Origin: Mytilus edulis
Lineage: Eukaryota
NCBI RefSeq assembly: GCF_963676685.1
Contig: NC_092350.1
Coordinates: 15,066,001-15,130,000, forward strand
Direction: 5' to 3'
Length of the DNA: 64,000 bases
Made by a program: the position numbers and the translations under genes. Below, piece after piece: positions 17,801 through 62,209 of this stretch; the first letter of the stretch is position 1; each line of letters begins with the position of its first letter. The notes under the pieces were generated by a model. The model was not told the DNA's origin. It saw only the letters and a list, made by a program, of their open reading frames with translations, and did no database searches.

Positions 17801-20800
17801 GTGTCCTACCACTCAGATGATGATCCATATGATAATAGCCAAGGACTACCTTGTGGTATGCTTTTGTCATAATTTCTAGATACTACTGTAGTTCCCCTCT
17901 AGAAATGTAAAATACAGAGATGTGTTACGATTGACAATGATATAAGTACTTCAACAGACTTTGTCTTCTTTCAATGGTCATCTGCATCATATTATTGTAA
18001 TGAATAAAGGAGATATGTGTGGAATATTCAAATAAAATACCAAGTCTTCAAAACAATCAAAGCATAATTGATTTTTAAAAAGTAAATGTCTTACAAAGGT
18101 AATTGAGTCAGGACTTTTTCTAATCAAAAGGCTCAAATGGCCCTCATATTCAAAAAGTAGTTGTACCAATTGATATCCTAGTACAGAACTACTGTAAATT
18201 CAAAAATTTGCGTGCATTTATGATTGCAATTTTAAGAAAACAGCCACATGCAGATATGTACTAGAGATCAGAAGGGGAGTGTTCTAATCTTTGCAGTACT
18301 TAATGAGTCGCTTTTTAAGAATGAATAAAAACTTCACATTAATTTCTGAATTTACAATTTTCACTGACCTATGAAACAGTTCCCTTATTGCATTAAACAA
18401 ATGATTGTGGTTAACATGGATTAAATATTTATTTGATTTTATTGACAAATGAAGTGTATTGTATAGGGACAAGACTTTACAGACCACCAGACAAACTAGT
18501 GGAGTTAGTTGCTGACGCCATAACAGAGAGTCCTGATGGTATGCTTCAAGTTCCTCAGATATATACTGTTCTTATGTAAGTATCAATAAAATGTGGTTAA
18601 ATACAGTCAGTTCATATATAAGTATCAAAACAATAGTTCAAATGCAGTCAGTTCATATGCAAATATCAAAACAGTAGTAACAATATTCTAAAAACATACA
18701 AAAAGAGTATGTAATAATCTGAAGAAGGATTACCTTAAATATATGATATTTTGTGGCAGGTTTTGCTAACTTCTGTTCAACATTTAATGGTCGAATGAGT
18801 TTAGGAAACATTGTATGCATAAATACCATAATGTGTTGGAAATTGAATATTTTATTTTTGTAAATATGAATTTTAAGTCTTGATGTTTCACATCTCAATC
18901 ATTTACTATTATGAAAAACAAATTATATTTAGCCGTAAAAAACAGTCCTCAGGTGACCCTGCTTTTTGAATTAATCATTATTTATGTTATTAAATTTATA
19001 TATTAAAGCAGGTTTGATAATGTTGGGACATGTTTATATAGTTAATATAAAATCTGGAGATGTGGTATGATTGCCAAATAACCACCAAAGACCAATTGAT
19101 GTAGATGTTAAAATAACTATATATTACCATACAGCCTTCAACAATGAACAAAACCCAAACAACATAGCAAATTATAGAAGCCCCTGACATGATAGCGTAA
19201 AGCACTTCAAAAGAGTTAACCAACAGTTTGATCTATGTAAAAAACAACAAAAATGTTGTTTGTCAAAATAAATCATCAGTTATAATGTGAAAAAAAATAG
19301 AACAACATGTTCCAAGCGCTTTTCTGGATTTACCATCACCAGGAACACTCAAAGCAGAAAATTTTGAAAGCCAAGTATGTATGACAACCAAAGCAGTTGA
19401 CAAGCTGTATGAGCAAAAAAGACCTAAAAGCCAAATCCATCTGAAATTAACTGAGGCCAAGGATTCTTTTTACTTGTCTTTTGGATTATAAATCAATAGG
19501 ATAGAAAAACACCTATAAAGCATAGAAAAATTGAGAAACCTTATATACTGTGCCAAAACAGTTTAACAACACTTTAAAAAAAAAAATTTTTGTTCTTTCT
19601 GGAAAAAAATTATTTAAACATCCTTGATATAATCCTTAGTTTTACCTGTAATTTAAAACAGTCGTACTTTTTTCCTGGAGATTGATTTCCCGCCATTTCA
19701 GCTTTGCACGTGTAATTGATGTTTTACCGTCTGTACCTGTACTTTTAAAACGATATTAAAAATTTCTTTTTCACTAACGTTCAAAAACACACCATTCAAA
19801 AACACACATTACACCTTTCAAAAAATTGCATGGTGCTTCAACCAGGTCTCCCCGAAAATGACCGTCAGAAAGCTCTTGGAATGGTTGATGCTGGAATGAG
19901 TGTTGCTGACATCATGGCTCGATTAAATGTGCATAAGGCAACAGTTCAGAGACTAACAAACAGATATCGACAAATTGCAACTGCACAGGATAGGTCGATA
20001 TCTCGTAGACCAAAAAAACTATTGTCAACGGATCAGCGCTATCATCTCTTTACGTCAACACGTGACAAGTTGTTTTACGGCCACAATTTAAGTAGTGCAT
20101 TGACTAAGGGCAGCTGCTGGTGTGCCTGCCAATCCTTCATTGGTGCACTTAGGGCATGGCAGAGAAATTGATTTTGAATAACACTATACTCATTTCCCCA
20201 TTTTGACCCTCCTGCGCTCCATACAAAGAAAATCCTCATGAATGTAAGGGATAAACATTCATGTTGCTTCTGACATGTCATAATTCCATTTTGTTATTAT
20301 TAAAATTATATGTGGCTATGATTTTGTAATAAAATGAAATTTCACATTTTTGTTGCTAAACTTTTTTGGCTCAGTATATTATAAAACTGAAATCTGTATA
20401 ATATAATGTTCATCATACAAATGAAAAATAATGATCAAATATATATATTTTTAGTAACTTTTCAAATCTTATTTTCCAGGAATAAATATCCCTATTTTAG
20501 ATACATGGATAAGTCTGCAGTCACTAGTTGGCGGGTAAGGTATCATAAGAACCTAATTTCTAGGATTGAAAAAAACTTGTTTTTTGCAAACTAAATTATT
20601 AAAGTTGACCTTTAGAGTCACAATAACATAATACTTACAAAATGTAGGGGACAATATAATATACACAGAAAAAAAGTAACTTGCCACTAAGTGAGTTGGT
20701 AATTAGGTATTTATTATAATTTCTGAATTAAGTTTGAATTGAAAATTTAAATTAAATCTTAAAACAGATGAAACAAAAGATTCATTGTTTACCTAAAATC

Positions 20801-23800
20801 TATTAAAATTGAATTGTATGCTCACTTTTTTGCAAAACACATGATTAAGTTGGAATGAACATTTGAAATGAATTTTTATGTAAAAGAATACATTTTAATA
20901 TGGAAAAAGTGATTAAAATCAATGAACAAGGAAAATATTTACATTTTTTTATTGGAAGCAGTCAATATTTTTTTTGAGTTATCTCCCATTAATACTGGTA
21001 GAAATCTTGTATACATACTAACACATTGTCAGAATTTCTATTAGAGGTTTCTATATTTAAGTTATTTTATTTCCTTCTTTTTTACTAATATTTTGGCAAT
21101 ATTTTTTTGTATAATTTTGAGTCTGTTTGATATATGATATAATGATTTATCTCCCATCAATTTTGATAAATAAACTCTGTATATTCATGTATTCATGCAA
21201 ACACACATTAATTTTCAAACTTCCAAATGAAAAAAAACTGTATGTCACTATCAATATATGTATATATTAGTTTAACTGTGTTTTTCAATAAATTTGTTCA
21301 TTAATGATTTACTTTTCAGAGTTCTGTAAGACATGCACTTTTCCAGAAATGGTTTAGGAAAGTTAAATTCACAACTCCAGAAATAAGCAGTAAAGGGTGT
21401 TTTTGGTGCATTAATACTCAAGTAGATTATGCAGAAATTTGTGCTGCAAGAACCAAAAAAGGTAGGGAAAATGATTTTGTGAAGTGTTTAATTGTAAACA
21501 TATCTTTTACCCTTGTATTTGTAACCTGGGACAAGTTACTCTATTGTTGTGATGAATATGCCAAAGGATGGCAATATGTAGTGTAAAGGGAAACATTGTG
21601 AAACTTGGTGAATTACTTTTAAGATTTCCATTTCCACTGTTTGTTTTTTTATAAATGCATATGGTTAGGCTGATAGAGTAATTCCCTGTCATTGAGTTTC
21701 AGCGTAACCCTTTGAAACATTTTTTTTGGGAAAAAGGACAGATTGTATATAAGACCCTTGTACAATCTTATAGCTCACACTGCAACAATAGTTACTGTTT
21801 TAATATTAATGGTACTGTCATTTTCAGAACAATTGTTTAAAGATTTTACAGTATTGATTTGCAACATGTAGTTGTAGTATTATTATCTCTTAAATTAATT
21901 TGAGCACATCTTTTTTACAGAAGAAAATACAGATGATTTAGACATAGATCCAAATCTACCAGACAATGTTATAGCATTACTAAAGGAAGAGGAGAAAGAA
22001 TTGCAGAAGGTTGTTGTTAAAGTAGAGGTAAACAAAAAGATTTATTTCATTCTATTACCATGATTTCCCTGTAAAATAAAACATCATTTCACATGTGAAA
22101 TAAATTTGAAAATCTCATCCCTTTGAAATATCATACAACTTTGGTGATGTCAATATATTTTTGATGACATTACATCAAAACAAATTGAGAATGTGTAGAT
22201 GAAGGTATAGTTTTTTTTGCATTTTGTGTACATGATAATTTTACGTTTGTTTTAGGTTTCTCTTGGATTTTTGCTTGTTATTCTATTCAAAAAAAAAATT
22301 GATAAGAGAGTAGCCATTATTACAGTGTCATCTCAGTAACTGATAAATGTGTTGAATAATATCTTGTTGCTGTGCATGAATCCAAGTTATTCTAAAAACT
22401 CTTCATCTCATGACCTAAGGATGCTGCAGATATTTAATTCAAGTTCAAAGTTAACAAATGTATTGTTGTAGGAATATTTTGTTTGCAACTTGCTTTGATC
22501 TAAATATCTGTCTTATGACTCAAAGTCTAAATCTGGGAGGTCAAGGTCACTTCATTTATTCACCCTTAATCAGGTGATTCTGCTATCTAATAATGATTTA
22601 AAGTTGTATAAAACTAGGAGCCAATTAAGGTTACATCTGTTAGGTAAAGGTTATACAGTTATAACCATGCTAAAGCCTTCTTTTATTTTAAATTGACTTA
22701 AGAGGTTGAAAAGTAACCATTGGACAGTTTTATTTTATCATTGATTTGTTTTTATTTCAGGATGCAGGATTGGTGAGTTGTTCTACTGTCAAAGTACCTG
22801 CACATCTAATCAATCAAGAGGCGGATCATGATCCAATACTAACAACATGTTTCACAACACCAAAGGCTGGTTATTACTGTAAGTCTGTCAGTATTTAGAT
22901 ACTTTTGATGAAATTATCTCCCCTGCTCGACAGCAGACATCTGTCTCATTCACAGGCCTTTTTTACATTGGTAGGCTTTTAATCAGTACTATTCAGCAGT
23001 ATTTGCACAGAAAATGGCTATAAGTACAACAAAAAAGGAATTATTCATTTATCATATATAATTCAGCATGGTTATCTATACTATTAAACAAGAAGACCTC
23101 ATTTTGCGTGTCACTTCTCTTCCTTCCACAATAAACCAATCATCATGACTCTGTGTCCTATGGCTAGCATGGAAAGTCGCATTTGTAATCCTTGCTTATG
23201 AGTATTTAGTTAGGATTATTTTGGGAGAAAAGCGAAAATAAAGGTGTCCAGATATTGTTTCCGTCATTGGGTGGACTTTCAAGTCATAGACAAGACTTCC
23301 GTTTCGGACTGTTTTAAATCACAAATGATTTTCATAATTACTTGGGGACAGAAAAATTACTTTGCGTTTTTCTGTATACTACGAATATACATATACTATA
23401 AAGGAAATGTATTTGCTATTTACTATCAATTCAAAGTTTATTATGCGCGGCTGTCACTGATATTTATTATATAAGGAATCTCTATAATGACTATATTGCC
23501 TAGGACAGTCGACTTGGAATGGAAAGTAAATAGCAAATACACTTTTTATAGTATATGTATGTTCATAGTATACAGAAAACCAGAAAACAAAAATTAACGG
23601 ACTGTGGAAAAAGGGGAAGGGCTTAAAAAATTGTCCTGTCACCAAATACCTATTACTTTTTATACCTTTCCTGAAATTGTCCAGTTAGAAAATCTTTTAA
23701 CAAAAATTCATCCTCATACTTTCAACCATGCTCTAAATGCCAGTGATTTTGCGGGTGTGTTCTAGTAGACAATAAAACTATTAAAAAGAAATCTAGGACT

Positions 23801-25486
23801 CAAAATGGTATTGAACTATTCATAACAATAATTGAATAAACAAGAATTTAGAATGTTCCCAGTCCCTAATGTTTTTTGTAAGATATTCCTCTGGTTTTAT
23901 CCATTATTTCCATGCAGTGCCATGAAATGTTTTGCCTGCTAACAACTACTGTTCTTTTCGTTCTTTTATCACATAAAATTTTAAAATCAAATTTTTGAAA
24001 ATCTTTGTTATGTTTATGCCCCTGCCATAAGCAATAGGGATTAAGTGTTACCCTTGACCATCAGTCATATTACATTTTCACACTTAAGTTTTATTATCAA
24101 AATATTTTAAAACTCTCACACAATGCTAAGAAACAAAAACACACTATCACACTCTTTTTCATCCACATTTTATGAACAATGCTGAGAACCACAACATGCA
24201 GACAAAGTCAGTGACTTTAACAAAAAAGAAAATCTGCTTTTTAAGCTTTATCATTTGAGAAGCCTCGAAATCAAATATTTGTAAAAACTAATATTGCAAA
24301 TTTTATGGAATTACTGACTTAAAAATGTTCAAGAACTGATATTTTTGGGCCAAACAAGTTCATTTGGTATCATTTCAAAGATGAGAATAATTTAATGTTT
24401 TATGTATGAGGGGACATAAAAAATAATGGCTGTCTGTCTCATGGTATTGTAAGGCCTCTTGTACAATTCTTGGGGGATTTTTAGCTCACCTGGAAGTTAA
24501 CTTTTACAAAAATCTTCTCCTTTTAAACTGCTTGACTGAGTTAAAATCCCCCTGCCAACCAGTATGGCCGCCATGGTTAAAAATAGAACATAGAAGTAAA
24601 ATACAGTTTTGGCTTATATCTCTGAAACTATAGCATTTGGAGCAACTCTGATGTAGGGTAACAATGTTTATAAAATAGATATCTATCTGCCCTGACATTT
24701 CAGACTCATAAGTACAATAGAAATGAATACAGCAGGCTAATGATAAACACTTTTAAGTAAAAATTGTAAATATGTATTATTGTATATAACATGTTAAAAT
24801 GTTGCATGAATTATTTTTCCTGATTTTTATTTCCAGACGGAATACATAGTGGATCTGTTTTTCCTGTCTCCACACGAAAAAAGGCAATATTGCCAGTCTC
24901 ATACATGAACAGATGCCTTACACCATCATTGATAGGCAGTAGAAGCACGTCTCCATTAAGTGACAGCTCAAATAGCTGTTCTTCTCTAGTCAGTCCTCTA
25001 CTGAATAGTGTGAAGCCTGATACACTAGGGGTTGACTCTCAGACAAGTCTTGGAAATTCTTCCATTAACTGGGCTCCAAAGCTACCATTTGATCAGTTTC
25101 TTGATGGACCAATCACGCCTTCACAAGAGTTTTTGCCAGAAAAAAGTGAAGATATACTATCAAACTGCCATTATCTAGAAAACGATGACATTGTGAGAAG
25201 CTCCTGTTCAGATCTGAGCAGTGGGAAAAGTTCAGTGTATGGAGACTGGGAACCAGGGTATGAGTTAAAGGAAAATGATTTGTTACAATGTCTGAATGAA
25301 AATGTGAATACCTCAATGAACTTTAAGTCTGAGGACAATACAGAAATAGGCTACATAATACCAGATGGTGTGAAGTGGGGGTTTATTGGAATGGATGAGA
25401 TGCCCACAGCAATATTTGACAAGGATGTCATGGCTTCATCTCCGGAATACCAATCACTTAGTCCTGAATCTAATCCAGAAATATAG
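14851..25486 (+). CDS. Divergent forkhead-box (winged-helix) transcription factor, 9 exons, 646 aa
   Basis: Phase-consistent exons: 14851-15283, 16435-16508, 17603-17855, 18467-18575, 20480-20534, 21320-21461, 21921-22027, 22761-22878, 24837-25486 (1941 nt). Exons 4-6 give RPPDKLVELVADAITESPDGMLQVPQIYTVLMNKYPYFRYMDKSAVTSWRSSVRHALFQKWFRKVKFTTPEISSKGCFWCI, collinear with the forkhead consensus. Basic NLS-like motifs KRRRR and PKKRK; Ser-rich/acidic tail. Confidence 0.88.
15331..15611. mobile_element. PIF/Harbinger-type MITE; decayed relative near 55150-55402
   Basis: ~40-bp TIRs gggagctaccatttgatttttatgggggg / ccccccataaaaatcaaatggtagctccc with TTA duplicated on both sides. Confidence 0.85.
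19307..19348 (-). ncRNA. Degenerate type I hammerhead motif (second family)
   Basis: Minus strand reads gtgttc-CTGGTGA-tgg-taaat-cca-GAAA-a-gcgc-t-TG-gaacat. Stems are intact, but A6 is G and position 17 is G, so it is probably inactive. Confidence 0.5.
19546..20376 (+). mobile_element. Internally deleted Tc1/mariner transposon
   Basis: TA-flanked TIRs tactgtgccaaaacagtttaacaaca / tgttgctaaactttttggctcagta. ORF 19830-20171 begins with a paired-like HTH (RQKALGMVDAGMSVADIMARLNVHKATVQRLTNRYRQ...DRSISRRPK). No DDE domain is visible. Confidence 0.85.
23086..23765. mobile_element. Probable rolling-circle-type non-autonomous insertion in a forkhead-gene intron
   Basis: Compositionally distinct block ending in ttttgcgggtgtgttCTAGt, with an internal imperfect inverted repeat near 23370-23580. 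Confidence 0.35.
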
Positions 25487-36989: not shown

Positions 36990-39311
36990 TTAACTTATAC
37001 TTTCTAAGATAATAACAAAAGAGTTTCTAGCATTAAATATGCATACAAGCTTATTTTATCAGTCAAATCAAAGGATATTTTTCAAATACAAAATTAAATT
37101 CTAAACAAGGAAATAGAGAGTAACAATTACCGCACTATCAATCATTATCCCAGATAATTTCAATGCATCAGAAAATTCAAGATGGAGAGCAATATGTTTT
37201 TCAATAAAACATTTTATTTGGCAAACTACTATCTGTATATAAAAGTACTTAAAATAAAAAACTTTCCAGTCCATCTGTTTACATTTTTCAAAAGAAAATT
37301 CAAGAGGGAGAGCAATGTGTTTTTTCAAAAAATGAAATCACGATTTCTAGTAAATCTAATGAACTGCAAGTGCAAACTTTATAACTAATTAAACATCGAA
37401 AAAGAGGCCCCAGCATGTTAACTATTTAATTCAGCACAACTTTGATATTGGGTTTGAAAACAAATAACCTTATGATGACAAGGCTACGTTTATCTTTACA
37501 AATCTTCTTTTTAGAATAGTAGTTCTATTCTCATCAGTGCACTTCATCATTTGAAATTATAAAAAAGGATAATTTTAGCAAAACCATACAGGTAGATCAA
37601 TATGTCACGATTGTGTTTATTATAGTCTGTAACACGTGACGAGACAGTTTTATTTGACAACAATATATATTGTTATTTTAATTTACAAAATAGTAATTAA
37701 CACTGATATCTTTTTCGAAAATCGACGTGACGAAAACTATAACAATGATACTTTGATATCTTGAAAAAATCAAGTAATTTCACATTGAATATTTTTGAAG
37801 TGGGAGACAAATAACTGATAAAGATAAACTAATGATATCAGCTCCAACCCCCCTTTCAAAAGTTAATGTCTCATCTGTATAGTTATGTACCTACCTATGA
37901 AGTACGATACACACCTTGTAAAAACAATGTAGGCATAGTGTCCGGATGGGTCCTTATTTCTTGATAGGTGTTTGATTCGAGTGGAATCAAGTCCCCCCGT
38001 GAATATGATGCAAAATTTAAACGAAAAAATGTCTTTCCTGAAAAGACGTTATAACCAAGCTAAAACTTGATAGACCAGGTTAGTTAGTATTTATCATACA
38101 AATTATTATTGGCCATTAATTGAAGTATTGATGTAAAACAGACTGTTTATATAAATAGAACAAAGCCATTTTTATAACATACAAATGCAAAATCGAATTG
38201 TCGAAGAGATATTATCTATGTAGTCTTATATTATCAGACATGTCATATGCACGGCAAAGTACATTTTGAACATACATTAGTTTTTAACTTTCTTGTTATT
38301 ATGTACAAATATGACTTTTCACATAATATACAATGATGATTATTATTTCTTTACGTAATAAATAAAGTGCTGCTGTCTGCCTCATTTGGTGGTCAGCTGA
38401 TCACAGCACTAAACAGTAATATGATGTTGTTTTGACCCTTTATCTGATAAAAAGAAAAAAATGACATTAAATGAAACTCAAAAACCCAACTCTGGTATCA
38501 TTTTGATAATTGGTATTGAAAGACATCTGTAATAATTTAACCTTTATTCACAAGTACCAAACCCCTTAAATAAAATTGAATCACTTGATATATATAACCA
38601 AAAGTCGAGTCAATTTAGGTAGAGTTATTTATCTGAATTATTTTTCTGTTCCAAATTTACTCCCTCAAGCTCATGCATACGTTTTTGATTTATTATCTGT
38701 ATGCTTTTAATGTTTAAATAAATCTTGATTAAAATTTGAAGTACGATAAAACGATAAAAAAAGTCTGATGGGAGTTTTTGAAGACATTGACTGGCTATAC
38801 AGCCCTCGCACGGTCGAAAAAAAGTCAAGACAATCGAGTGCAGACTTTATACTACCCGTTTATTTTTTTCAAGTTAATAGTTTAAAATATATTTGTGTAT
38901 ACATTAATCTGAAAATGAAGTGCGAACATACATAAAAACATACTAGTATATAAAAAATGAATTTAAAGCTCAACATGAACAAATATCATACTAATAATTA
39001 TAAAGATGTCTATCTGAAATCCATATTCCGATACTTTTGTACGTGTAAGATAAAGGTCAATAAACATATGTTACAAACTCAGAAAAATTTAACATGTTCG
39101 CTCATCTTTAATAAAATCTTAGATGATAGTAGTCTCGTATAAAATTGATACAATAATTTGTAATTTATTTAAAATGAGGAATAGAACTGTGTAGGTTAGT
39201 TTATATTATATAATAATATGCATAAAGTTGTATATGACGTTTAACGTCCAGTAGCAAATACTATCGCTATTTTATGAAATTTTCTTTTGATCTTACTGAC
39301 TGATAATATTA

Positions 39312-39449
39312 GTTACACAGTGTGCAATTGTCCTAATACGAGAATTTATCGGGTCAATAAAATTCATATCGGGGGAGGCGAAGCCAAACCCGATATGAAT
39401 TTTATTGACCCGATAAATTCCGTATTAGGACAATTGAACACTGTGTAAC
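39312..39449 (+). repeat. Long palindrome with central GGC-GAA-GCC mini-hairpin
   Basis: ~61-bp near-perfect arms; centre at 39377-39385. Confidence 0.9.
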
Positions 39450-40030
39450 GAATTTATCTTGATTTTGTTATATTACATATTATTATATTTAAATTCAATA
39501 TTTGTACAATAATCAACCAAATATATTTAAGATATTTAATCTAAACCTGTTAAAAATTTAAAATATTAGAACTATAAAGCAAATCTTTATTTTTATTTTT
39601 TGTTAGATCAATGGTATAAGGGAGATAATTCCAATTGACGTAATAAATAAGGGACATAATTCCTATTGACGTAATACAAAAATTGTACTGAAATTTATTA
39701 GGACAATATAAGCCAATCAAATAAATTGCGAGAAATTACTCTCAATCAGGATAATTTTCTTTCTCAGCACAGTAGAGTGATGAATAATATTCGCAATAAA
39801 CTAAGGGCACACGTGCCTTTTGTCAGTGAAATTAACAACGTCGTCATAGATAATAAAAAAAACCACTCCCCTCGTACCGGCTCAAGCGAGAAAATCTCGT
39901 TGAGATGATAAACGATAATCTATAAATATATGTCTGAGTGATAGCAAAACGATTGTAACAGCAAATATGTTGAAGAAATTAAAAAATATCGTAATATTTC
40001 TATATTTGTAATCACATTTTTCATTTTTTT

Positions 40031-43000
40031 ATATTTCAATCCAGTGGTGTGACTGTAAAAGATGAGACAGACGAAATACAACACAGCGAAAACTTTAGCT
40101 GTTATATTAGTGGGATTAATGATGGTAAAGATATTTATTCCTGAAATGTATGTACAAATGAATACGAATACTATTAGTATACGCAATGTAACCTAATACG
40201 ATACATGGTCAGTAAATTCTATATAGAACGTCTCAAAGCGAGTGAAGCTCAAGCCCTGTATGGACTTTAATGTCATTGTATATATCATGTTTGGTCACTA
40301 GCACAATGTGTATCGAATTTATCTTATAGACTATCTAGTACCATACATAAGACAGTAAGTCACGCACTATCAATCAGTCTAGGAATCTGCCCAAATCTGC
40401 AAATTTGTAGACAGATGTGCAATTTTCTTCGTTTTACTGTTTATTTATATAAGGAAACTTGCTGATTTATTGCATTATCCGATATATTTAAACATACCGA
40501 ATATTTGTGTTTTAGAATTATAACTCTTTTAGTAAAAAATTATACTGGTCTGATAGGAAATTTTTTAATTTTTACTTGTAGCAAGAAAACAAGATCGGTG
40601 ACATCATTTTTTCTTTTTATCTTCTTAAAACATATTTTAAAACCTATCTTCTCGCAACTTATTTCAAAATTCTAGCTTAAAGACTTCTTTTTATGCACAA
40701 AAATGTGTTTTTGAATGATCATTCTCAGCAAATTTAGGATTTTCAACGACTCATAGCTTGAAAAATAGCACAGTGACACATCCTTTTTATTATATTTTTG
40801 AAAAGATCATAGAAAATCTTCATTTTAGAAAAGTTAAAAAAAAATCTATCTCGGGGAAACTTATACTTCAAAGTGAGAGAAATTATGGGCTCTAAGATAT
40901 GATTTGATTACAGCATGAACTATAATAATTATGTATTTTTACAATAAATGATACTTTGAGACTAGTAACACCGTTTTTTATTGTTAAAGTCGAACGTAAC
41001 TCTACCACTCTCCGTGTATTGGTTTTATAAAGAGACACCCCACAACTAATAACCGTATATTAGAATAAAACACGCCCAGTGACCAAAAAAATACAAAAAT
41101 ACACCTAATAAAGGGCATACGATACAGTAGAGATCCCTCGTTGATTTATTCTTAAAATTTTGATAGAAGGTCAATTTCAATGTGTACTTTTCAAATATAC
41201 AAAGAAAAATGTACCTTCAGGACTTACTTTTTGAGATGATTTGGTTCGAAATTTGCATATTTGGAAGAAAATCCCTGAAATTTCATCAATAATGACTTTT
41301 AAAGAAAGTAACAATACTTTTGAACGAAAAGTCATTACTTAACCGGTTTTGTTTGTAAAATATTTCCTTGATCCATGGCATCAACATGCTGAAACAAGTA
41401 TAAGGTTAAATCAAATCATCATGTTCCTGATTTTGATTGCTATATCCGAAATAAAGCAATTGACCATATTTTTGTGTCTTTTCGGAAGTGCAGAAAAAAT
41501 TTGATCGTTGATTTTTTCCTGAAAATTTGGCGGAGTGTTCTTGAAACAGTACTTGATTGATTTCAAAAGAAAAACATTGGGGTCCATGTGCTTGTTTTTT
41601 CAATAAAAGCCATACGTCTGTCAGTATGGCGCTTAATTACGTTAAATTAAGTTTTAATCGCAACAACGTCGTGTAATCATTCCCGCCATACACGAGTTCG
41701 CTGTCAATTATATGCTACGTAGATTTTCACTATTGAACCTGTAGCTATATACTAGTTGTTACATAAATATTGATAGCAGCTACGTAGCCGATTTGATCCG
41801 AATTCTCATTTATGATGCATTTCGTGTGTATTTTGAACTAAACAGTATTTAAGAATTCATCTCTTAAACTGCCAATGTTCATATCTTTCGCTATAAACAT
41901 AAACAAAAATATAAATTGACATTCAAACCCGTGCAACAGTATAATTCAATTTTTCTAGATATGTCTAATTTAATTTTATATCTAAAAACATATGTGTATC
42001 ATCGTTTTTCCTCATCGTATGATTATAGTCTTTGGGGCATGCTCAGTCAAAGAAATATTTATTTTTTAGGCATAGTGAGCTAGATAACAAAGTTGTTGTT
42101 AACCAAATTGAACTGAACTTTAATAACAACAGTCACAAACAAAGACAGGAATCTGAAAGGAGTAAAGAAGGGATAAAAGAAAACAGCCATAAGAATTTTA
42201 AGTTTTTTATATACGACTTACCTTCGTCACTTAATATTTCAATCCAGTGGTGTGACTGTAAAAGATGAGACAGACGAAATACAACACAGTGAAAACTTTA
42301 GCTGTTATATTAGTGGGATTAATGATGGTAAAGATATTTATTCCTGAAATGTATGTACAAATGAATACGAATACCATTAGTATACGCAATGTAACCTAAT
42401 ACGATACATGGTCAGTAAATTCTATATAGAACGTCTCAAAGCGAGCGAAGCTCAAGCCCTGTATGGACTTTAATGTCATTGTATATATCATGTTTGGTCA
42501 CTAGCACAATGTGTATCAAATTTATCTTATAGACTATCTAGTACCATACATAAGACAGTAAGTAACGCACTATCAATCAGTCTAGGAATCTGCCCAAATC
42601 TGCAAATTTGTAGACAGATGTGCAATTTTCTTCGTTTTACTGTTTATTTATATAAGGAAACTTGCTGATTTATTGCATTATCCGATATATTTAAACATAC
42701 CGAACATTTGTGTTTTAGAATTATAACTCTTTTAGTAAAAAATTATACTGGTCTGATAGGAAATTTTTTAATTTTTACTTGTAGCAGGAAAACAAGATCG
42801 GTGACATCATTTTTTCTTTTTATCTTCTTAAAACATATTTTAAAACCTATCTTCTTACAACTTATTTCAAAATTCTAGCAAAAAGACTTCTTTTTATGCA
42901 CAAAAATTTGTTTTTGAATGATCATTCTCAGCAAATTTAGGATTTTCAACGACTCATAGGTTGAAAAATAGCACGGTGACACATCCTTTTTATTATATTT

Positions 43001-44440
43001 TTGAAAAGATCATAGAAAATCTTCATTTTAGAAAAGTTAAAAAAAAATCTATCTCGGGTAAACTTATACTTCAAAGTGAGAGAAATTATGGGCTCTAAGA
43101 TATGATTTGATTACAGCATGAACATGTAATAATTATGTATTTTTACAATAAATGATACTTTGAGACTAGTAACACCGTTTTTTATTGTTAAAGTCGAACG
43201 TAACTCTACCACTCTCCGTGTATTGGTTTTATAAAGAGACACCCCACAACTAATAACCGTATATTAGAATAAAACACGCCCAGTGACCAAAAAAATACAA
43301 AAATACACCTAATAAAGGGCATACGATACAGTAGAGATCCCTCGTTGATTTATTCTTAAAATTTTGATAGAAGGTCAATTTCAATGTGTACTTTTCAAAT
43401 ATACAAAGAAAAAAGTACCTTCATGACTTACTTTTTGAGATGATTTGGTTTGAAATTTGCATATTTGGAAGAAAATCCCTGAAATTTCATCAATAATGAC
43501 TTTTAAAGAAAGTAACAATACTTTTGAACGAGAAGTCATAACTTAACCGGTTTTTTTTGTAAAATATTTCCTTGATCCATGGCATCAACATGCTGAAACA
43601 AGTATAAGGTTAAATCAAATCATCATGTTCCGGATTATGATTGCTATATCCGAAATAAAGCAATTGACCATATTTTTGTGTCTTTTCGGAAGTGCAGAAA
43701 AAATTTGATCGTTGATTTTTTCCTGAAAATTTGGCGGAGTGTTCTTGAAACAGTACTTGATTGATTTCAAAAGAAAAACATTGGGGTCCATGTGCTTGTT
43801 TTTTCAATAAAAGCCATACGTCTGTCAGTATGGCGCTTAATTACGTTAAATTAAGTTTTAATCGCAACAACGTCGTGTAATCATTCCCGCCATACACGAG
43901 TTCGCTGTCAAGTATATGCTACGTAGATTTTCACTATTGAACCTGTAGCTATATACTAGTTGTTACATAAATATTGATAGCAGCTACGTAGCCGATTTGA
44001 TCCGAATTCTCATTTATGATGCATTTCGTGTGTATTTTGAACTAAACAGTATTTAAGAATTCATCTCTTAAACTGCCGATGTTCATATCTTTCGCTATAA
44101 ACATAAACAAAAATATAAATTGACATTCAAACCCGTGCAACAGTATCATTCAATTTTTCTAGATATGTCTAATTTAATTTTATATCTAAAAACATATGTG
44201 TATCATCGTTTTTCCTCATCGTATGATTATAGTCTTTGGGGCATGCTCAGTCAAAGAAATATTTATTTTTTAGGCATAGTGAGCTAGATAACAAAGTTGT
44301 TGTTAACCAAATTGAACTGAACTTTAATAACAACAGTCACAAACAAAGACAGGAATCTGAAAGGAGTAAAGAAGGGATAAAAGAAAACAGCCATAAGAAT
44401 TTTAAGTTTTTTATATACGACTTACCTTCGTCACTTAATA
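40031..44440 (+). repeat. Recent 2.2-kb tandem duplication (40031-42236 / 42234-44440)
   Basis: Near-identical copies with period ~2203-2204 bp; paired ORFs 41406/43610 and 42032/44236; ATA microhomology at the junction. Confidence 0.95.
41959..42236 (+). pseudogene. Truncated duplicate of the 5' part of the GT47 exon
   Basis: Same sequence as 44163-44440; the coding match stops at FFIYDLPSSLN, at the duplication junction. Confidence 0.85.
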
Positions 44441-45546
44441 AAGACATAATACCATGCGTTATGAAAAGACTAGGAAATTGCTTTGGCTTGCTCAGCCATG
44501 GGTTTGGAATTGAAATGTTCCGAACCGGAAAACATCAGGATATATCTGTGCGGAGCACAAATCAATTTAGCCTTGAAGTGGTCATGCATAACAAACTTCT
44601 ACATAATCGTTTACGTACCATGAATATGTCTGAAGCTGATATATTTTACATACCGGCCTACCTAGGATTGATGTCCTTTTGTAACAGAAAAGAAACTAAA
44701 GATAGAATTCAAATATTAAAACGGTTTCTTGCAAAAAGTGATTTTTTTCTCCGAGGACTACCACATTTTTCATCAGCCTCTAAAATAGAGCGTGAAATGT
44801 ATTTCTATTTTAATGAAGGTTTTACTAAAACTATAACTTTTCTTGGTATTGAAAAGCAACGAAGTCAGATTGAAAATACGCATGTTATTACTGTTCCTTA
44901 TCCATCCTATTTGCATCATGATTTAGGGGGTCAATCGTATTTAACAACAGAACTTTCAGAAAGAGATATTTTCATACTGTTGGCAGCAGGAGAGAGGCGA
45001 AGCAATCGAGATCGAGCTAAACTGATGGATCAATTTGAAATTACTACTAAAATGTCTTATTCTGCGTTCAAAAATCACAAACGGGGTAAATCATCAGATA
45101 TGGTTTTATTCTTTACGAACGAATGTAGTGCTAGGGCAATAGAAAACACTATACCATGGATGCTAAAATCTGTATTTTGTTTGCAACCGCCAGGGGACTC
45201 ACCGACTAGAAAATCATTTTACGACGCTATGTTAAGTGGATGCATACCTGTTATATTAACAGAGGGGCAATACAATCCGTACCCTTTCCAAAGATTTTTG
45301 AAATACGATGATTTTTCGGTGTTGATACCCTTAAGGAACATAACTTCAGAGAATCAAAGTATTTATACCATACTTAGAGGAATTCAGAGAAGTGAAATTG
45401 AAAGATTATACAAAAACATTCGCCTAGTGGCTAAATTTTATCAATATTCTTTAATAGGAAAAGGGAAGTTCAATGAAAGTGACGCTCTTCAACCTATATT
45501 TGCTGAGTTGGCTCATGCCTATAATCTGAACTATTCTTCGGACTAA
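44236..45546 (+). CDS. GT47 (exostosin-domain) glycosyltransferase, MUR3/KATAMARI1-like; N-terminus unresolved or disrupted
   Basis: Motifs FFIYDLPSSLN, TNQFSLEV, ADIFYIPAY, VPYPSYLH and SVFCLQPPGDSPTRKSFYDAMLSGCIPV. The catalytic domain is in one uninterrupted exon. In-frame stops lie just upstream of the ORF, and there is no GT64 domain. Confidence 0.85.
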   Translation: MGHAQSKKYLFFRHSELDNKVVVNQIELNFNNNSHKQRQESERSKEGIKENSHKNFKFFIYDLPSSLNKDIIPCVMKRLGNCFGLLSHGFGIEMFRTGKHQDISVRSTNQFSLEVVMHNKLLHNRLRTMNMSEADIFYIPAYLGLMSFCNRKETKDRIQILKRFLAKSDFFLRGLPHFSSASKIEREMYFYFNEGFTKTITFLGIEKQRSQIENTHVITVPYPSYLHHDLGGQSYLTTELSERDIFILLAAGERRSNRDRAKLMDQFEITTKMSYSAFKNHKRGKSSDMVLFFTNECSARAIENTIPWMLKSVFCLQPPGDSPTRKSFYDAMLSGCIPVILTEGQYNPYPFQRFLKYDDFSVLIPLRNITSENQSIYTILRGIQRSEIERLYKNIRLVAKFYQYSLIGKGKFNESDALQPIFAELAHAYNLNYSSD

Positions 45547-51294: not shown

Positions 51295-53141
51295 AACTAT
51301 GCAGTCTGTGAATCAAGAGTTCTTTTTTCAAGGCAAACAATGACAAATATGATGAGATGTTACAAATTCATTCATCCTGATATGCCGGGTCAGGTATTTT
51401 TCTTTTCTTGACGTAGTGTTTTTCGTGTCATGATTAAACTGTTCAAGTTTGTTGCATTCGGCACACAAGTCTGCTTATGATAGTATGATTCATCATGAAA
51501 GCGACCATACATATACATGTATTCTAAGACTGCTTACAACAGTACTTCCTAGCATCTTGCCAGCGTTTGCATACATTGTATAAATACGGTAACCCAATCA
51601 CATACAAATGATCGTGTTCATATTGTCGCAATAGTTTATTGTCGCAATAAGTTACACGCAAAAACACGTTTAAACAATCAAAATCGTATCATTAACATTT
51701 TAACTTAACAAATTTGTAACACTTTGATTTTTATAATTTTTATCTTGAATTTGGTGATGACAAGGAATTGTATATTTAAATATACAATTCCTTGGTGATG
51801 ATTATCATTTGTCTGATACATATTGGTTGCCATTAAAAACAATCAATTAATTATACTGTTCTGTTGTCTGCATTCAAGTTATACTATTTATTTTATAAAG
51901 AGTCATATTATCATTTGATATTATCTAAATGTTTCCGTTCATTATACAGTTTATCATTTTTCTTTTATCGCAATTTCATTGTCAATTTTGATTTTTGATT
52001 GATGAGTTTGAATATTTGCTTCTCTTTTAGTTCAATTAAAGATAATTTTATTCATTTGTTCTGGTGTAGTATGAACGGATAATCTGTGTTGTTCAGTCTT
52101 TCAATTTTACATTTTTTGTAGATTATTGAATATTGTTTGTCTTTTAGTTGTATGTTTGTCATTATTTTTGTCAGTCTCTCATCGAGTTATAAGTCTGCTT
52201 TTGGTATTTACTGCCACTTTTTAAGTGCCTATATGATAATACTTTAAAATGTTTCATAAAATGAAATTAAAATCTTGTTCACAGTTTGAATAGTTGTTTA
52301 AGACAGTTTTGATACAATATCGCAAATTGTGAATGTTTTTCTTAAATGTTGGATTGAAGGACACCGCGAATCAATTAGTAGCATAATCAAATAAATGTTC
52401 TGATAGCACATTGATATTGGTTTGGAATGTCATTTATGAGTTAATTAATAAAACGTTGCCACAATTTTAGATTCGATCAATTTTTAGCCCTTTGAAGATT
52501 TGTAATTTAGCGAAGTACCCAATATTAATAAAAGTGCGTAAGTTTCTCATGACGCCATCATAATGTACATTTAAGTAAAAATTGGAAGTCGTTTTGAAAA
52601 TGGCACTGACTTGAAATCAATTCTATGGAAAATTAACCTTCATCTTTTAACCAAACAATTAAAAATTAGATTTAATACAAAAATATAGCTCCCTAGTCTT
52701 TTCTACGTGAACGTTTAATCACCTACAAGTATCTAATCATAAGATGCCTCGTGTATAAGTCACAAATTTATTTATATTTCTCCTAAATTCCAAATATTGG
52801 TTATAGCAACAACAACAAAAAATGTGTATTGAACTGTTAGTCGATAAATTTAAATCTAAAGTTGAAACATGTGTTCTTTCTTTTTTATATTGATTGTATC
52901 ATTGGATGGAAAACATACATAATAAATTTGGTAAACAATGATAATTGAGAAAGCACACGTCTACTGAACGGAACGTAGCTTTATTTAACATTTTATAACA
53001 TAAAACAGCAACAAACATAAATATTCATAAAACATTTGCAATAACTCCTTTATATTTCCTTCAATTTCAACCATGGATGGATAAAGTATGACGAAACAGA
53101 ATTTACAAACTTCCAGTAAAACAGCGGTATCATTAAACATT

Positions 53142-54643
53142 TTAAATTGTGTAGTCCATTTTCTTCTTTTTTGTATCTTGTTCAGCGACGATGACTGTGA
53201 CAGATGCTGAAAAGTAAATATACAATTTTTTGATATTTTTTTTTATTTTTGCAGTATCTCTGAATATCAGTAATTGCTAGATATAAGCAGAAGCAAAAAC
53301 ATTAAATCAATAAATGAACCTCAAAACACGGAAATATTTATACGATATCAATCATTGGTTTTTGGTGATAGCAACAGAAGTAGTTAGAGTTAAATACGAC
53401 GACGTAGTTTTATCTATCAAGATTTGAAATTTTATTGTTTAATAACACAAACGGTAACAATTTTTCTGCACCGGATGCGCATTTCAACAATCAATGTTCA
53501 GTGATGCTCGAGACCACACTATTGTATTGAGAGGTCTGTTAAAGTAAATGTCATATCGCCCAGCAAGGGACCATAATTGAATTGATATGTAGTCTTTTTC
53601 TAATTCTTATTGGATAAAGATTTTCCCTTTTTGATATTATAATAAGAAGATTGGTAATACAAAAACTCTCAAAAATAGACCAAAATGACGTACAATGTAG
53701 ATATGTCACCATAGCGCTTCAACAATGAGCAAAACTTATAACGCACATCAAGCTATTGAAGTCTCCGACATGACCAATATAAGAAATTGTAACAAGAATA
53801 GACTGATAGATGTACAAAACAATGAATGAAAACAAAGATAATATAAAGCAACAAACATATTATCTAGACACCTGTTCATGGTTAAAACTTTAATTGCATT
53901 TTTTGTTATTGTTTCTCTGCTGTTGAGGTTTTTGACTCACTGGCAGCTTTTACCCAATTACCTTTACCACATCTATACAATAGGCTGCTGAACTGTTTGA
54001 AAAATTAGTTGCCACAAGTATAACACAATATAATCATCCATTTTTTTCAAAGATTTATGTTTGGCGTCCCTGGTGAATGTTTATATAAAAGAGCTCAGAA
54101 AGTGTGTAGTTCATAAAACGTGGTTGTCATGGAGGAACATTCATTTTCTCAATTATAGTAACTTACTGTTATTTTATAAAGTTAACACAATGTGTTTTGC
54201 TAGTGGCCCATAAGTTTAAATTTGGATTTTCTGTCTATGTTTTGTCTATGATTATACATTTTAAACTTCAGATGTAGTGTTTTTTGACAGCATAATTAAG
54301 AGTCATTTTTGTAAACGAAAATCATAACGACAAGACAGATACTGGTGTTGTAATGCATTGTATATAATTCACTTTATCAGTTATATTACTTTACATCAAG
54401 ATGTGATTAATTCATAAAAAGAAGTAAAATTTAGTAATAACATAACCAATATTTTGTAAATAATCAAATTTATCAACTAATAACTAATTTAATGAACTTA
54501 CCATCCATCGAACAACTTGTATACTTTGACTGACTTTGACTTTGTTTACGTCTAGTACTCCTTTTGCAGCAAAGGCAGATGAAAATAGTACAGACAGAAA
54601 ATGCAAATGCAGATATGATAATACTTTGCAACCAAATTTCCAT
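53142..54643 (-). CDS. Two-exon 68-aa single-pass membrane microprotein of unknown family
   Basis: Exon 54643-54502 (ATG...G|GTAAGT) plus exon 53206-53142 (cttttcag|...TAA) gives MEIWLQSIIISAFAFSVCTIFICLCCKRSTRRKQSQSQSKYTSCSMDASVTVIVAEQDTKKKKMDYTI. TATAAATA at 54738-54731, AATAAA at 52985-52980. A paralog with the same intron lies at 58727-59695. Confidence 0.75.
53468..53508 (-). ncRNA. Degenerate hammerhead motif related to 57876-57919
   Basis: Minus strand reads gcatca-CTGA..-GAAA-t-gcgc-a-TC-cggtgc, with part of the core and stem II deleted. Confidence 0.4.
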
Positions 54644-56804
54644 TGGAAATAAATATGTTATGCAGTTTTCAAAAGATTTTTAGTTTGAAATATATTTCTG
54701 ATATAGTGTCATTATGGTAAATGATTTTTGTATTTATACCGCGTATAGGCGACATGTTGACGTCATTTAGTGTGGGATTCAGTTGTGTCCATTATGTATG
54801 TTATGTATTTAACATTTTAACATTTTTTTTAGTTATTTAACATTTATTCAAGACTTCACAATACACAAACAGCTGGCCATGCTATTCTAGTAAATAAGAA
54901 AATGCAAAAACATATATATATATATATATATATGTGTCGCATATATTTTTTAAGGTTATATGAAGTATGGACATTTATTTAGCCGGTAAAAAATCGGTTA
55001 ATGTTTTATGTTTTACTATCTCACTGACACAATCTGATAGAAAAAAGGAGATGTTAGGACACAGATGACAATGACAGACAACTTACAGCATTTAACAATG
55101 ACCAAAGCTAATACCATAATAGAGATACCAATTGTTTTTTAAAGGGAAAGGGAAGGGGTCTTTAATGGAAAATGTTGTCCCGTATTTGTTTTAGTTTTAA
55201 TCTCTGCCTTTTTTTCACTCTATTCGGTCCTGCATTTTTATTTATCAGTTTATTCTAATTTGTTTACATAAATCGTCATTCTGTTTTTTTTTGCAAAGTT
55301 GCTCATCCTGCCCCCCTTTTTTTTAACCCTAAACTCATTTTCTGCCAATTTTTTCTTCAAATTGTATCCCAGCACCTCATGTAAATCAAATGGTAGCTCC
55401 CTAAAGTCAAATTCATTTTGTTTAAATGTGAAACAATCGAAAAGAGAACAATTTAAGAGAAAACAATCGTTCGTTATATATAATATGAAAACATTTCAAA
55501 GATGTGTGAAACAGTATTTTCTAATGTTGACACAACTAGCATCTGTGACGTACTGTTTTTTTTTTATATTTACAAGCACGTGTAGAAAGAAACAGTAAAT
55601 AAACTAAAAAAAAAAAATAACACAATTTTTACTTTTTTGTAATCGTTATTGGATTTGCGCATGGTTGAAAACCAAATACGGATCTGTAGTTGTTTTCATA
55701 CATGTCCTGTGGTCCGTGGTTGTAGTTGTCTCGCTATCAATTTTTCCAGTTATGCTCATTTCTACTGTGCATTTGTATTAGGATATTTGTAAATTAATAA
55801 AAAAATGCCTAATATGTTTCAACTCGTGTTGTCGTTCCCACAATCCTGTTCGCTTTCGATGACAGTTGTTATCTGTCAGAAATATTAAAGAATTGAATAA
55901 CTTAGGTATATTTCTAAAATCTGCTGAAAAACTTAGAATTTAATTGCAGTAAATAATATTTTTGTTCTCACTTTATTTAAGTATCATATCATTCTCCGCT
56001 CGTATTTTGTATTTTGTATTATGTATTATGTATTATATGTTCTTTCATGCACACCTTATATTTATATTTACTATATATCTCTTGTGAAATTCTTATATTG
56101 GTGTAAAATTGTGTATATGTATCCTATAAGCTGTATTGCTTTCGGAATAAAGTATTATTATTCGAATGTGACATTATCGAATTTGTACTTACATGATCAA
56201 CCTAACAGATGAAGCAGGATCTGCTTTATTATTCAGATCTCATGATATTGCCCCCGATGTTTGGTGTGATTCGTGTTGGTTATTCTTTTGTTTTATATGT
56301 TGTGTTTTATGAAGATTGGTCTATTTTGGTCATTTTCCATTTTTTTACATGGTGTTGTCGATTTGTTTTTGTCTTAGTCTTTGTCTCTAGTTGAATAATA
56401 ACTAAGATATGTTGGCCATAAACTGTTACAATTGTATCAGGTATAAATATTTAGACGAATTCGGCTGCCATTATTGCTGTCTCATGTTATAAGCTTCGAT
56501 GCCTTTAACTTCTACTTGAATATAACCATCCAACAGTTTAAATATTTTAGTCAACGGTTAACGTGAGTTAATCAATTCACTGTTTCTAAAAACAAGATTT
56601 GGTATGTTTGCCAATCCGATAATTCTCCACAAGTGACCAAATGAATTAGCAATTAACAAAGATGGGTCACCGTACATCCTTCGCCAATAAGACAACTTTC
56701 CACAAGAGACCAAAATAACATTAAAATTAACAACTATAGGTTACTGTGCGGCCTTTACCAATGGGTTGTGTTCTCCATAAGAAACCAAATTAAATAGAAT
56801 TGGA

Positions 56805-57725
56805 TTGATATTTAGACAAGTTGTATATACATAATGTTTACAGCCATGTATCACCATCATTGCTGGTGGTCCGATGGATAAATCTGTTGTAGAGTTGTCA
56901 CTGACTCAAACGTATTTATAAATATAATTATTTTCTGTGACTGTATCTTGCATTTATTTGTAGGATCATTTATTTTAGATAGTTGAGATGATCTGTAACA
57001 ATACCATCACCATGCCTTTTATATCATATACTGTATTACGACACTAGATTAAAACTGACGTGGAAAGGTAACACACGGCCACCGAAAGCTTTACTATTGT
57101 GAAGCCCAGGTGGTCGTGTGGTCTAGCGGGACGGCTACAGTGCAGGCGATTTGGTGTCACAATATCTCAGTAGCATGGGTTCGAATCCCGGCGAGGGAAG
57201 AACAAAAAATTTATGAAAGCAAATTTACAGACCTAACATTGTTGGGTTGATGTTTAGACGAGTTGTATATACATAATGTATACTATATACAACTCGTCTA
57301 AACATCAACCCAACAATGTTAGATCGGTATATTTGCTTTCACAAATTTTTTTGTTCTTCCCTCACAGGGATTCGAACCCATGCTACTGACTGTATCTTGC
57401 ATTAGTTTGTAGGATCCTTTGCTATATATAATTGAGCTGATCTTTAACAATAACATCTCCATGCCTTATATATCATGTACTGTAGTTCGGCGCTAGATTA
57501 AAACTGACGAGGAAAGGTAACACACGGCCACCGAAAGCTTTATTTTTGAAGCTCAGGTGGTCGTTTGGTCTAGCGGGACGGCTGCAGTGCAGGCGATTTT
57601 GTGTCACGATATCTCAGTAGCATGGGTTCGAATCTCGGCGAGGGAAGAACAAAATATTTGCGAAAGCAAATTTACAGATCTAACATTGTTGGGTTGATGT
57701 TTAGACGAGTTGTATATATATATAT
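56805..57725 (+). mobile_element. Composite repeat with tRNA-like (Pol III A/B box) modules at 57104-57198 and 57551-57645 and an inverted partial copy
   Basis: A-box-like tggtcgtgtggt/gtggtctag and B-box ggttcgaatcc. 56937-57270 recurs at 57387-57718. There is no canonical cloverleaf. Confidence 0.75.
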
Positions 57726-58570: not shown

Positions 58571-58634
58571 AAATATATAATGAACGGAAATTATTTTTCA
58601 AATAATATAATATTGTTAAATTCATTTTTATGAA

Positions 58635-58722
58635 GTCCAGGTGGTCGTGTGGTCTAGCAGGACGACTCCAGTGCAGGCGATTAGGTGTCACGATATCTCA
58701 GTAGCATGGGTTCGAATCCCGG
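58635..58722 (+). mobile_element. Isolated tRNA-like head of the 57104 family
   Basis: Same A/B-box sequence, ending just after ggttcgaatcccgg. Confidence 0.7.
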
Positions 58723-58726
58723 AATA

Positions 58727-59695
58727 ATGGAAATTATTTTTCAAATAATTTTAATATTGTTATTATCATTTTCCGTCTGTAGTCATTTATCTTCATTTGC
58801 TGCAAAATGAGATCTGTAAAGAATTCTTATGCGTTGTCAGTTTATTGTCGACTTATGATTTTGACTGTCCCTCTGGTATCTTTCGTCCCTCTTTTATGGA
58901 AATCTTATGGTTGTGAACAAAGCCAGTCTATGTATTACAGTCGTTCAATGGACGGTAAGTAAATTATATCATTTTTATTTGCTGGTTAATAAATATATCT
59001 ATACTATTTTTAAAACCTTGATTGATACTTCCGTGTTCATTTTATTTAAACATGTCATAATTTTGAAATACAATAACTGAACTATATACATAGAATTGTA
59101 ACTCCAGTATCCTTGGTATCGTCAAAATGAATGTACGTTTAGGATCAGGTTGAAAGTAAGTCATAAGGCTATCAATATCAACTTAAGAAATAAAACCAGG
59201 TTTAAACAGGTGACATAATAAAGTTGCACAGTATATAACCATATTCCGATTGAACATGTTCATTCTAAATCGAGGGGACTGAAAACAAAGTCAATTGCAT
59301 GAATAAACGATGATGTTGAATACACTTGAATGAAAAGGCAATAAACAACACAAATACGTTAGCCAACAAAACCTGCAATCTTCAATAGTAAAATGGGTCT
59401 ATACCATTTTTCAGAGATTCAAAGTCAACTATACTTGGGAGTAAATAATCAGAAAGTATCAATCATTTGCAACAAACAACTAATTTTCCAATAAAAAATT
59501 GACCCAAACTAGCTTTACAAGGAGTTAATAAAGATACACAAGTTGTTCGCATTGTTTTATTTTTTACTGATTGTATTTTGTTATGTTTGATATTCAGGTG
59601 TACTGCACATTAATAAAAAAATAAACACTAAAGATTTAAAAAAAAAATTTCCAGCGGCGCCAACCGTCATCTTAACAGAACAAGCATCAACATAA
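58727..59695 (+). pseudogene. Disrupted paralog of the 68-aa membrane microprotein
   Basis: Exon 58727-58954: MEIIFQIILILLLSFSVCS, 1-nt frameshift, FIFICCKMRS, 78-bp insertion, QSQSMYYSRSMD G|GTAAGT. Exon 59655-59695: AAPTVILTEQAST*. Confidence 0.75.
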
Positions 59696-59710: not shown

Positions 59711-59860
59711 TAAGGAATAACTGTAATATTTTTTCTACGCCGAAATAACATAAAAAATTTGGTGCATACTGAATAACGCGCGTAGCGGGCTATTTAACAG
59801 TGTGCACCACATTTTTATGTTATTTCGAATAGACAGAAAAAATATTACAGTCATTTCTTA
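59711..59860 (+). repeat. Long imperfect palindrome with central CGC-GTA-GCG mini-hairpin
   Basis: Arms taaggaataactgtaatattttttct... / ...agaaaaaatattacagtcatttctta; centre at 59779-59787. Confidence 0.8.
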
Positions 59861-62024: not shown

Positions 62025-62209
62025 ATAATAGTTCTTGAAAAACTGGTCATTATCGTGATACATGGACTGCCCGTAGGACAGTGGTATTGACTGCGACAGC
62101 GATAATGACCTCGCCTTCGGCTCAGTCCTTATCACTATCTTAGACAATACCACTGTCCTGTGGGCAGTCCATATATCACGATAATGACCAGTTTTTCAAG
62201 AACTATTAT
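62025..62209 (-). repeat. Long palindrome with central GCC-GAA-GGC mini-hairpin (minus strand)
   Basis: ~84-bp arms ataatagttcttgaaaaactggtcattatcgtgata... / ...tatcacgataatgaccagtttttcaagaactattat; centre at 62113-62121. Confidence 0.9.

Follow-up and report, generated by a model that had tools for sequence, protein, structure and literature searches.

A spliced microprotein gene of the mussel Mytilus edulis and its small family of predicted single-pass membrane proteins

Small membrane peptides often regulate pumps, channels or trafficking, and the regulins, FXYD proteins, MAP17/PDZK1IP1 and SERTM2 are examples of single-pass regulatory micropeptides. Stannin and insect Hemotin form a highly divergent smORF family, which acts at early endosomes via 14-3-3, as described in the accessible part of one report (PMC4807881). 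Transmembrane adaptors of the LAT/PAG type are defined, in the available portion of another, by a long tail bearing multiple tyrosine motifs (PMC4861716).

The gene described here lies in a stretch of mussel DNA of 64,000 nucleotides (the window) and belongs to a small, new family within a known class of proteins, the single-pass membrane microproteins. Judged by analogy, the closest working analogue of the mussel family is Hemotin/Stannin. Similar to Hemotin/Stannin, as far as that family is presented in the accessible part of PMC4807881, the mussel genes are smORFs of less than 100 aa with no ectodomain, an N-terminal helix carrying cysteines where it reaches the cytosol, a basic patch and a Ser-rich tail. 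The mussel proteins differ in being shorter (58-68 aa) and in having no match to Pfam SNN or in the PDB. With the regulins, FXYD, MAP17 and SERTM2 they share the small size, the one helix, and the helix as the conserved part, but there is no significant sequence match and the Cys cluster is invariant in the mussel family; paralog B, one of ten members, matched MAP17 with an E-value of 0.025 (15.1 bits, below the cut-off of 29.6). The top neighbours in the ESM Atlas were TMEM52, Stannin and SMIM36, with the TMEM52/SMIM36-type proteins at 0.87-0.93, which are leads only by Atlas indicators. The mussel family differs from the TMEM52/SMIM36 type in that PF14979 was unmatched and the shared features (137-158 of 256) were under the level typical of members. 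No family match was detected in Pfam or the PDB, and Pfam at E<=10 gave just hydrophobic matches below the cut-off. Judging by titles and abstract openings, literature searches on bivalve microproteins, Stannin and Hemotin revealed no description of the family, and no literature joining stannin with molluscs was found.

The window covers C7:15,066,001-15,130,000 of a 1.37-Gb assembly, and is eukaryotic DNA with a GC content of 25-35%. The gene (gene A) is encoded on the minus strand, and the two-exon model of 68 codons proposed by the first-pass annotation matches the sequence base for base. Coding exon 1 (54502..54643, minus strand; model and spliced contig) starts with the ATG at 54643, comprises 142 nt (47 codons plus one base), and encodes an acidic N-terminus, a hydrophobic helix, a Cys cluster, a basic patch and a Ser-rich linker. 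It is followed by a phase-1 intron of 1295 nt (53207..54501, minus strand) with GT..AG ends, the donor GTAAGT and a pyrimidine-rich acceptor (...TTTTCAG), which is precisely absent from a contig of run X1. Coding exon 2 (53142..53206, minus strand; 65 nt by the model, with the contig continuing to 53126) encodes the C-terminal 21 residues and TAA. The spliced product has 68 aa, with a Kyte-Doolittle value of 2.64 over residues 8-26, CLCC at 23-26, KRSTRRK at 27-33, and tyrosines at 41 and 66. A transmembrane helix ending in C23-x-C25-C26 is predicted at codons 8-26 (54566..54622, minus strand) by hydropathy, charge bias (-1 / +6) and AlphaFold2. The TATA and AATAAA signals, CLCC, KRSTRRK, the two tyrosines and the C-terminus KKKKMDYTI claimed earlier were each found in the sequence. 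The gene is also absent from the ORF track as claimed, neither coding frame being among the 47 stop-to-stop frames of at least 80 aa.

The 5' UTR (54644..54717, minus strand) is colinear with the genome, with bases 1-218 of the spliced contig on 54717-54502; the contig cannot show the true transcript start of gene A. A candidate TATA box (TATAAATA) is present at 54731..54738 (minus strand), a motif that is frequent in such AT-rich DNA. The promoter also possesses a perfect CRE palindrome (TGACGTCA; 54758..54765, minus strand), located 19 nt 5' of the TATA box, a feature additional to those named by the first-pass annotation. An upstream ORF of 10 codons (54680..54712, minus strand) is in frame with gene A; the frame is closed by its stop, which lies 36 nt ahead of the main ATG. 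The ATG of this upstream ORF appears to be missing in the haplotype behind the protein record P0002, as inferred from a residue change. A first AATAAA, the candidate polyadenylation signal (52980..52985, minus strand), lies 157 nt 3' of the stop and beyond the end of the contig, and a second one is found at 52767..52772 (minus strand).

Four runs were compared over 52600-56800. In run X1, which consists of assembled contigs presumed to be RNA, a 301-nt contig with a depth of 6.8 covers 54717-54502 and 53206-53126 and jumps exactly at 53206/54502, with GT..AG ends. The junction that had been named as a check is present, in one contig of one of the four runs. Relative to the window, the contig carries Ser7Ile and one silent change, one more letter differs in its exon-2 part, and 2 nt are inserted in its 5' UTR. 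No upstream exon was detected in the contig, which extends 74 nt 5' of the ATG. A processed DNA copy is an unlikely source of the contig, because the DNA search with exon 1 matched one place in the genome. Since the spliced form occurs in one of four runs, gene A is read as transcribed somewhere, and as silent or rare in the other three samples. In three raw RNA-seq runs, all of one study and together 5.7 billion letters, exon-1 reads and splice joints were both absent, which fits restricted expression. Gene A is almost certainly a real spliced gene.

The search with protein queries in the same genome revealed two intact paralogs, paralog B at C7:15196973 (minus strand), 76 kb from gene A, and paralog C at C2:74833205 (plus strand). 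Both begin with MEPWLEA, have a helix that ends in CFCC-R, and possess a phase-1 donor after 148 nt. Their second exons are predicted from the candidate acceptor pair that scored highest among 11,872 (31, with 22 for the next), and the predicted proteins have 58 aa each, of which 30 are identical. In all three genes an in-frame stop ends exon 2, that of B and C being predicted. Paralogs B and C match each other with an E-value of 3e-9. Gene A matches B with an E-value of 0.07-0.13 (32% identity), and its identity to B and C (23-32%) is weak by score alone. Because the match between A and B is weak, the start, the Cys pattern and the intron phase serve as further grounds for placing gene A in the family. 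A search that gave 22 matches comprised B and C, one match with a stop, and 19 matches to one tandem repeat, an array at C11:80,825,700-80,828,700 (L067-L085) whose unit recurs about every 70 nt. The MEPWLE pattern has a third match, L088, which was rejected, as no hydrophobic frame follows the pattern. Long ORFs near the family genes, of which 27 out of 59 were scanned, carry mostly transposon domains, and synteny was uninformative.

A profile of the three first exons, searched against 1.84 billion representatives, gave three matches at E<=0.001. P0001 is a read-through of paralog C, and P0002 is a read-through of gene A from another haplotype or a close species. P0003 has an identity of 44-46% with B and C, a value obtained from its near-twin P0009, and it is assigned to another organism because the present genome holds no closer match. 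This outside homolog group consists of P0003 and P0009-P0015, and its read-through has G-K at the expected position of the phase-1 donor. P0001-P0003 and their relatives were called as genes on unspliced Logan, ENA or JGI contigs. No spliced, named record of the family was found in the protein collections searched; these gave only read-through ORFs from unannotated contigs, in agreement with the earlier description of the gene as unannotated. Word-based protein searches with exon 1 of gene A and of B found zero candidates among proteins of near length, and no DNA locus of the outside homolog was confirmed in two metagenome scans (593 and 42 pattern matches). The source names of P0003, P0009, P0011 and P0014 include 'predicted permease' and 'beta-lactamase regulating signal transducer'; these labels likely reflect host DNA called as prokaryotic genes, the exon being apparently eukaryotic.

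P0002 differs from gene A at 1 of 47 exon-1 residues, vs 9 differences in 59 flanking pseudo-codons, of which 7 fall in the 37 upstream and 2 in the 22 intronic ones (Fisher two-sided p=0.040). The flanks are ungapped segments picked after inspection, with the more distant, indel-bearing upstream part excluded, and TGA is counted as Trp since the record apparently called it so. For paralog C, five records show 1-2 changes in 49 residues, and indels in the intron. Among homologs, the dN/dS ratio, another check named by the first-pass annotation, is about 0.3 between the intact paralogs B and C (dN 0.46 and dS 1.49 over 58 codons; 0.245 and 1.17 over codons 1-28). The pattern of ATG, helix, Cys, basic residues and donor has three matches in the real 564 kb, which were selected to contain those three genes, vs a mean of 0.13 across 30 controls of 564 kb matched in dinucleotide composition (any match in 3 of 30). 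On these sequence comparisons, gene A is under protein-level constraint.

The first-pass annotation also cited an independent paralog with the same intron. The position of the phase-1 intron is indeed shared, but this copy is not intact, having a frameshift and a repeat insertion; it is an inverted duplicate (58727-59695, plus strand) located 4 kb from gene A. Its exon 1 (58727..58954, plus strand) has a frameshift near 58790, a stop at 58808-58810 and a repeat fragment at about 58831-58898, and the donor GTAAGT is retained at 58955. Exon 2 (59655..59695, plus strand) follows after a 700-nt phase-1 intron. In the present assembly the 1-nt frameshift ends the frame after 27 codons, which may be an assembly error. 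The fragment of about 67 nt inside exon 1 belongs to a common repeat with 24 other matches in 564 kb. Self-blast detected a 46-nt copy of the duplicate's 5' end, followed by a 95-nt repeat fragment (58583..58722, plus strand), between the duplicate's TATA-like box and its ATG; the 95-nt fragment is also present at 57097-57191 and 57543-57638. Over 31 comparable codons, dN between the duplicate and gene A is 0.28 and dS is 0.58, compatible with a constrained period preceding the decay. Two genome-wide patterns revealed no further copies of the gene A subtype besides gene A and this duplicate. Because the local duplicate is broken, it is weaker support than had been claimed, and the argument for a real gene is carried by the intact paralogs B and C elsewhere. 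At 56938-57722, two repeat copies are joined through an inverted segment (57167-57389), and a fragment of this repeat occurs in the broken duplicate; the repeat presumably carries tRNA-like A and B boxes.

All four lineages, that is, gene A, B, C and the outside homolog, have an acidic N-terminus, a 19-residue hydrophobic stretch, terminal cysteines and then basic residues. In each of the four, the net charge is -1 or -2 ahead of the helix and +1 to +6 behind it; in the product of gene A, seven residues precede the hydrophobic stretch and the charge after the helix is +6. AlphaFold2 modelled exon 1 as a single continuous helix over residues 3-42, with a pLDDT of 86-95 over residues 1-30 and of 50-58 past residue 30. 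A second, cytosolic helix is a feature of Hemotin/Stannin. Invariant across the four lineages are Met1, Glu2, Trp4, Ile9, Val17, Cys23, Cys26 and Ser45. Mean pairwise identity is 50% in columns 1-28 vs 19% in columns 29-48, the tail. No helical face of conserved or small residues was detected (p=0.60 and 0.28). By the positive-inside rule, an acidic N-terminus with basic residues after the helix marks an uncleaved N-out/C-in signal anchor. A single-pass membrane microprotein in N-out/C-in orientation is thus very probable, as predicted from hydropathy and charge. Where a helix ends on the cytosolic side, cysteines flanked by basic residues are typical sites of S-acylation, and S-acylation of Cys23, Cys25 and Cys26 is predicted as likely by analogy. 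The earlier claim of a real gene for a single-pass micropeptide with juxtamembrane cysteines is supported by the splicing, the constraint and the gene family.

The tails are Ser/Thr-rich, with Thr at -1 or -2 from the C-terminus in three of three genes. The C-terminus of B fits a class I PDZ-type motif, and KRST and RKQS of gene A fit the PKA consensus; these tail motifs are short, were found post hoc and vary between members. Upstream of both intact paralogs there are CRE-like or half sites, in addition to the full CRE upstream of gene A. From local frequency, the chance of finding them within 150 nt is 0.006 for the full CRE and 0.06 per gene for a half site, both computed post hoc. The presence of such sites upstream of all three genes suggests signal-induced expression.

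Because conservation lies in the helix and the cysteines, we read the product as a probably acylated regulatory peptide with the helix as its working part. The 68-aa product would reside in the membrane with a short acidic N-terminus outside and the tail in the cytosol, and Cys23, Cys25 and Cys26 would probably be S-acylated. The conserved helix likely packs against a putative membrane partner, of which the product would be a small regulatory subunit. The Ser/Thr-rich tail likely serves as a phosphorylation switch; its control by a kinase is speculative, as are an interaction of the C-terminus with 14-3-3 or PDZ proteins and a signal-induced, cell-restricted expression from the CRE-TATA promoter. 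The full mechanism proposed, an acylated regulatory subunit of a membrane partner acting through its helix, has in our estimate an even chance of being right. The conserved helix could also mean anchoring alone.

The mussel family could instead be a molluscan Hemotin/Stannin branch, that is, an endosomal hemocyte peptide that binds 14-3-3 via its Ser-rich linker and tunes PI(3)P-dependent endosome maturation, a reading with a small chance of being correct. Stannin ranked second in the ESM Atlas for P0009 (0.91) and seventh for exon 1 of gene A (0.82), but the features shared with Stannin (149 of 256) are fewer than the 170 typical of true members, and only one of the ten best family matches in the Atlas agreed. 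Comparison by eye with the sequence file of PMC4807881, in the part accessible, revealed the same layout, QRLSQS in P0009 and lizard Stannin, ICVF in P0009 and mosquito Hemotin, and SQS...VG...ETK in paralog C and Stannin; SQS is present in three of four lineages. Such short common motifs would point to shared ancestry. Against this, the motifs align only when about 7 residues are gapped, and since the Atlas chose Stannin from millions of clusters, a match of 6 residues lacks significance by itself. The known proteins have about 77-98 residues, vs 58-68 in the mussel family. The accessible main text of PMC4807881 does not mention molluscs and reports the family as highly divergent. None of ten family members matched SNN in Pfam, PDB sequence searches gave zero matches at E<=10, and no family locus was matched genome-wide by PF09049, PF09050 or PF09051, in searches run without a positive control; as these models are vertebrate-based, their silence is weak evidence against the family being a divergent member. 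Because the searches with the Pfam Stannin models and of the PDB were empty, membership in Hemotin/Stannin is not claimed. From sequence, true homology is doubtful, and we consider it unlikely that the family is a CRE-inducible molluscan branch of Hemotin/Stannin controlling endosomes via 14-3-3, with its vicinal cysteines as a candidate organotin target.

A passive membrane peptide or homo-oligomer, such as a small channel or a lipid-domain organiser without a specific protein partner, would also account for conservation concentrated in the helix and cysteines, and coronavirus E-like small membrane proteins are among the Atlas neighbours, at a low score (0.82-0.85). These scores are within the range of shuffled proteins, and the helix has no conserved polar face, so this reading is improbable.

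Distinctly less probable is a secreted peptide precursor, in which a signal peptide would be cleaved and a cationic remainder released, as in mussel defence peptides. Gene A does encode an N-terminal hydrophobic segment with a cationic remainder (+6), and its local duplication and decay resemble those that defence gene families undergo. However, the 19-residue core runs straight into Cys and basic residues, behind an acidic N-terminus and with no polar cleavage region, which fits a signal anchor. The would-be signal is also more conserved than the would-be mature part (50% vs 19%), the reverse of the usual pattern.

The first-pass annotation compared the product with LAT/PAG-type transmembrane adaptors, which would be phosphorylated at Tyr and recruit SH2 proteins. 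Gene A has an adaptor-like layout, with no ectodomain, a single helix, a juxtamembrane Cys cluster and two tyrosines, and each of the three genes in the present genome has one Tyr at position 41-45. LAT, NTAL and PAG are alike in having few extracellular residues, one helix and juxtamembrane cysteines, and differ by a long tail with SH2-docking Tyr motifs (PMC4861716, accessible part), both lacking in the mussel family. The tail has 42 aa in gene A and 31 aa in the paralogs, too short for the long tail of the adaptors, and it is the least conserved part of the family. Motifs of the types YxN, YxxPhi, ITAM, ITIM, NPxY, PxxP and PPxY number zero in four sequences, which have 2, 1, 1 and 0 tyrosines (the last being exon 1 of the outside homolog only). 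Tyr66 is missing from both intact paralogs and is followed by just two residues. With a short tail, no conserved tyrosine and no SH2-docking motif, the claim of an adaptor fails; a long tail with several Tyr motifs was looked for and not found, and therefore we reject this reading as very unlikely, the membrane layout being shared.

Most improbable is that exon 1 is a membrane exon within a longer receptor gene, or a decaying remnant of such a gene, as similar helix-CC-basic exons after splice acceptors (L003, L005, L006) look like parts of longer genes and an AG lies immediately 5' of paralog B's ATG, but the spliced contig is colinear with the genome for 74 nt 5' of the ATG, the assembly has an in-frame upstream stop, Met1-Glu2-x-Trp4 is invariant in four of four lineages, and a stop ends exon 2 in all three genes. 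Seven out of nine matches of the protein search were rejected as relatives: L003, L005, L006 and L007 are helix-CC exons behind acceptors, and L008-L010 possess no gene-like features. L006 and L007, which lie on two contigs, have the same sequence around the match.

The acylated regulatory peptide proposed here represents a conserved spliced microprotein family that is missing as a spliced protein record from the collections searched. If it were homologous to Hemotin/Stannin, that family would reach a third animal lineage, and bivalve phagocyte function and organotin sensitivity could be approached experimentally through it. Otherwise it is simply another family of unannotated single-pass microproteins.

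Other features were observed in and near the window. Upstream of it on C7, two frames with near-identical starts (L045:2278-2769 and L037:4668-5525), about 80 kb apart, represent a duplicated gene; they were unmatched in Pfam at E<=1e-4. Five frames rich in Ser, Pro and acidic residues (2806-3150, 4371-5417, 14746-15363, 17603-17872 and 24824-25486, plus strand) are exon-like, as if derived from one or more genes, and were unmatched in Pfam at E<=1. A long open frame at 44233-45546 (plus strand) encodes an Exostosin/GT47 domain (PF03016, E 4.5e-37). Its first approximately 70 codons are copied in a 2.2-kb tandem duplication with 98.7% identity (40028-42236 / 42231-44440), in which the first copy of the frame breaks off, reflecting a recent duplication or an assembly artefact. 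Self-complementary segments of 150-220 nt, likely MITE-type repeats, were found at 3348-3558, 23368-23579, 39302-39458, 59711-59860 and 62025-62209.
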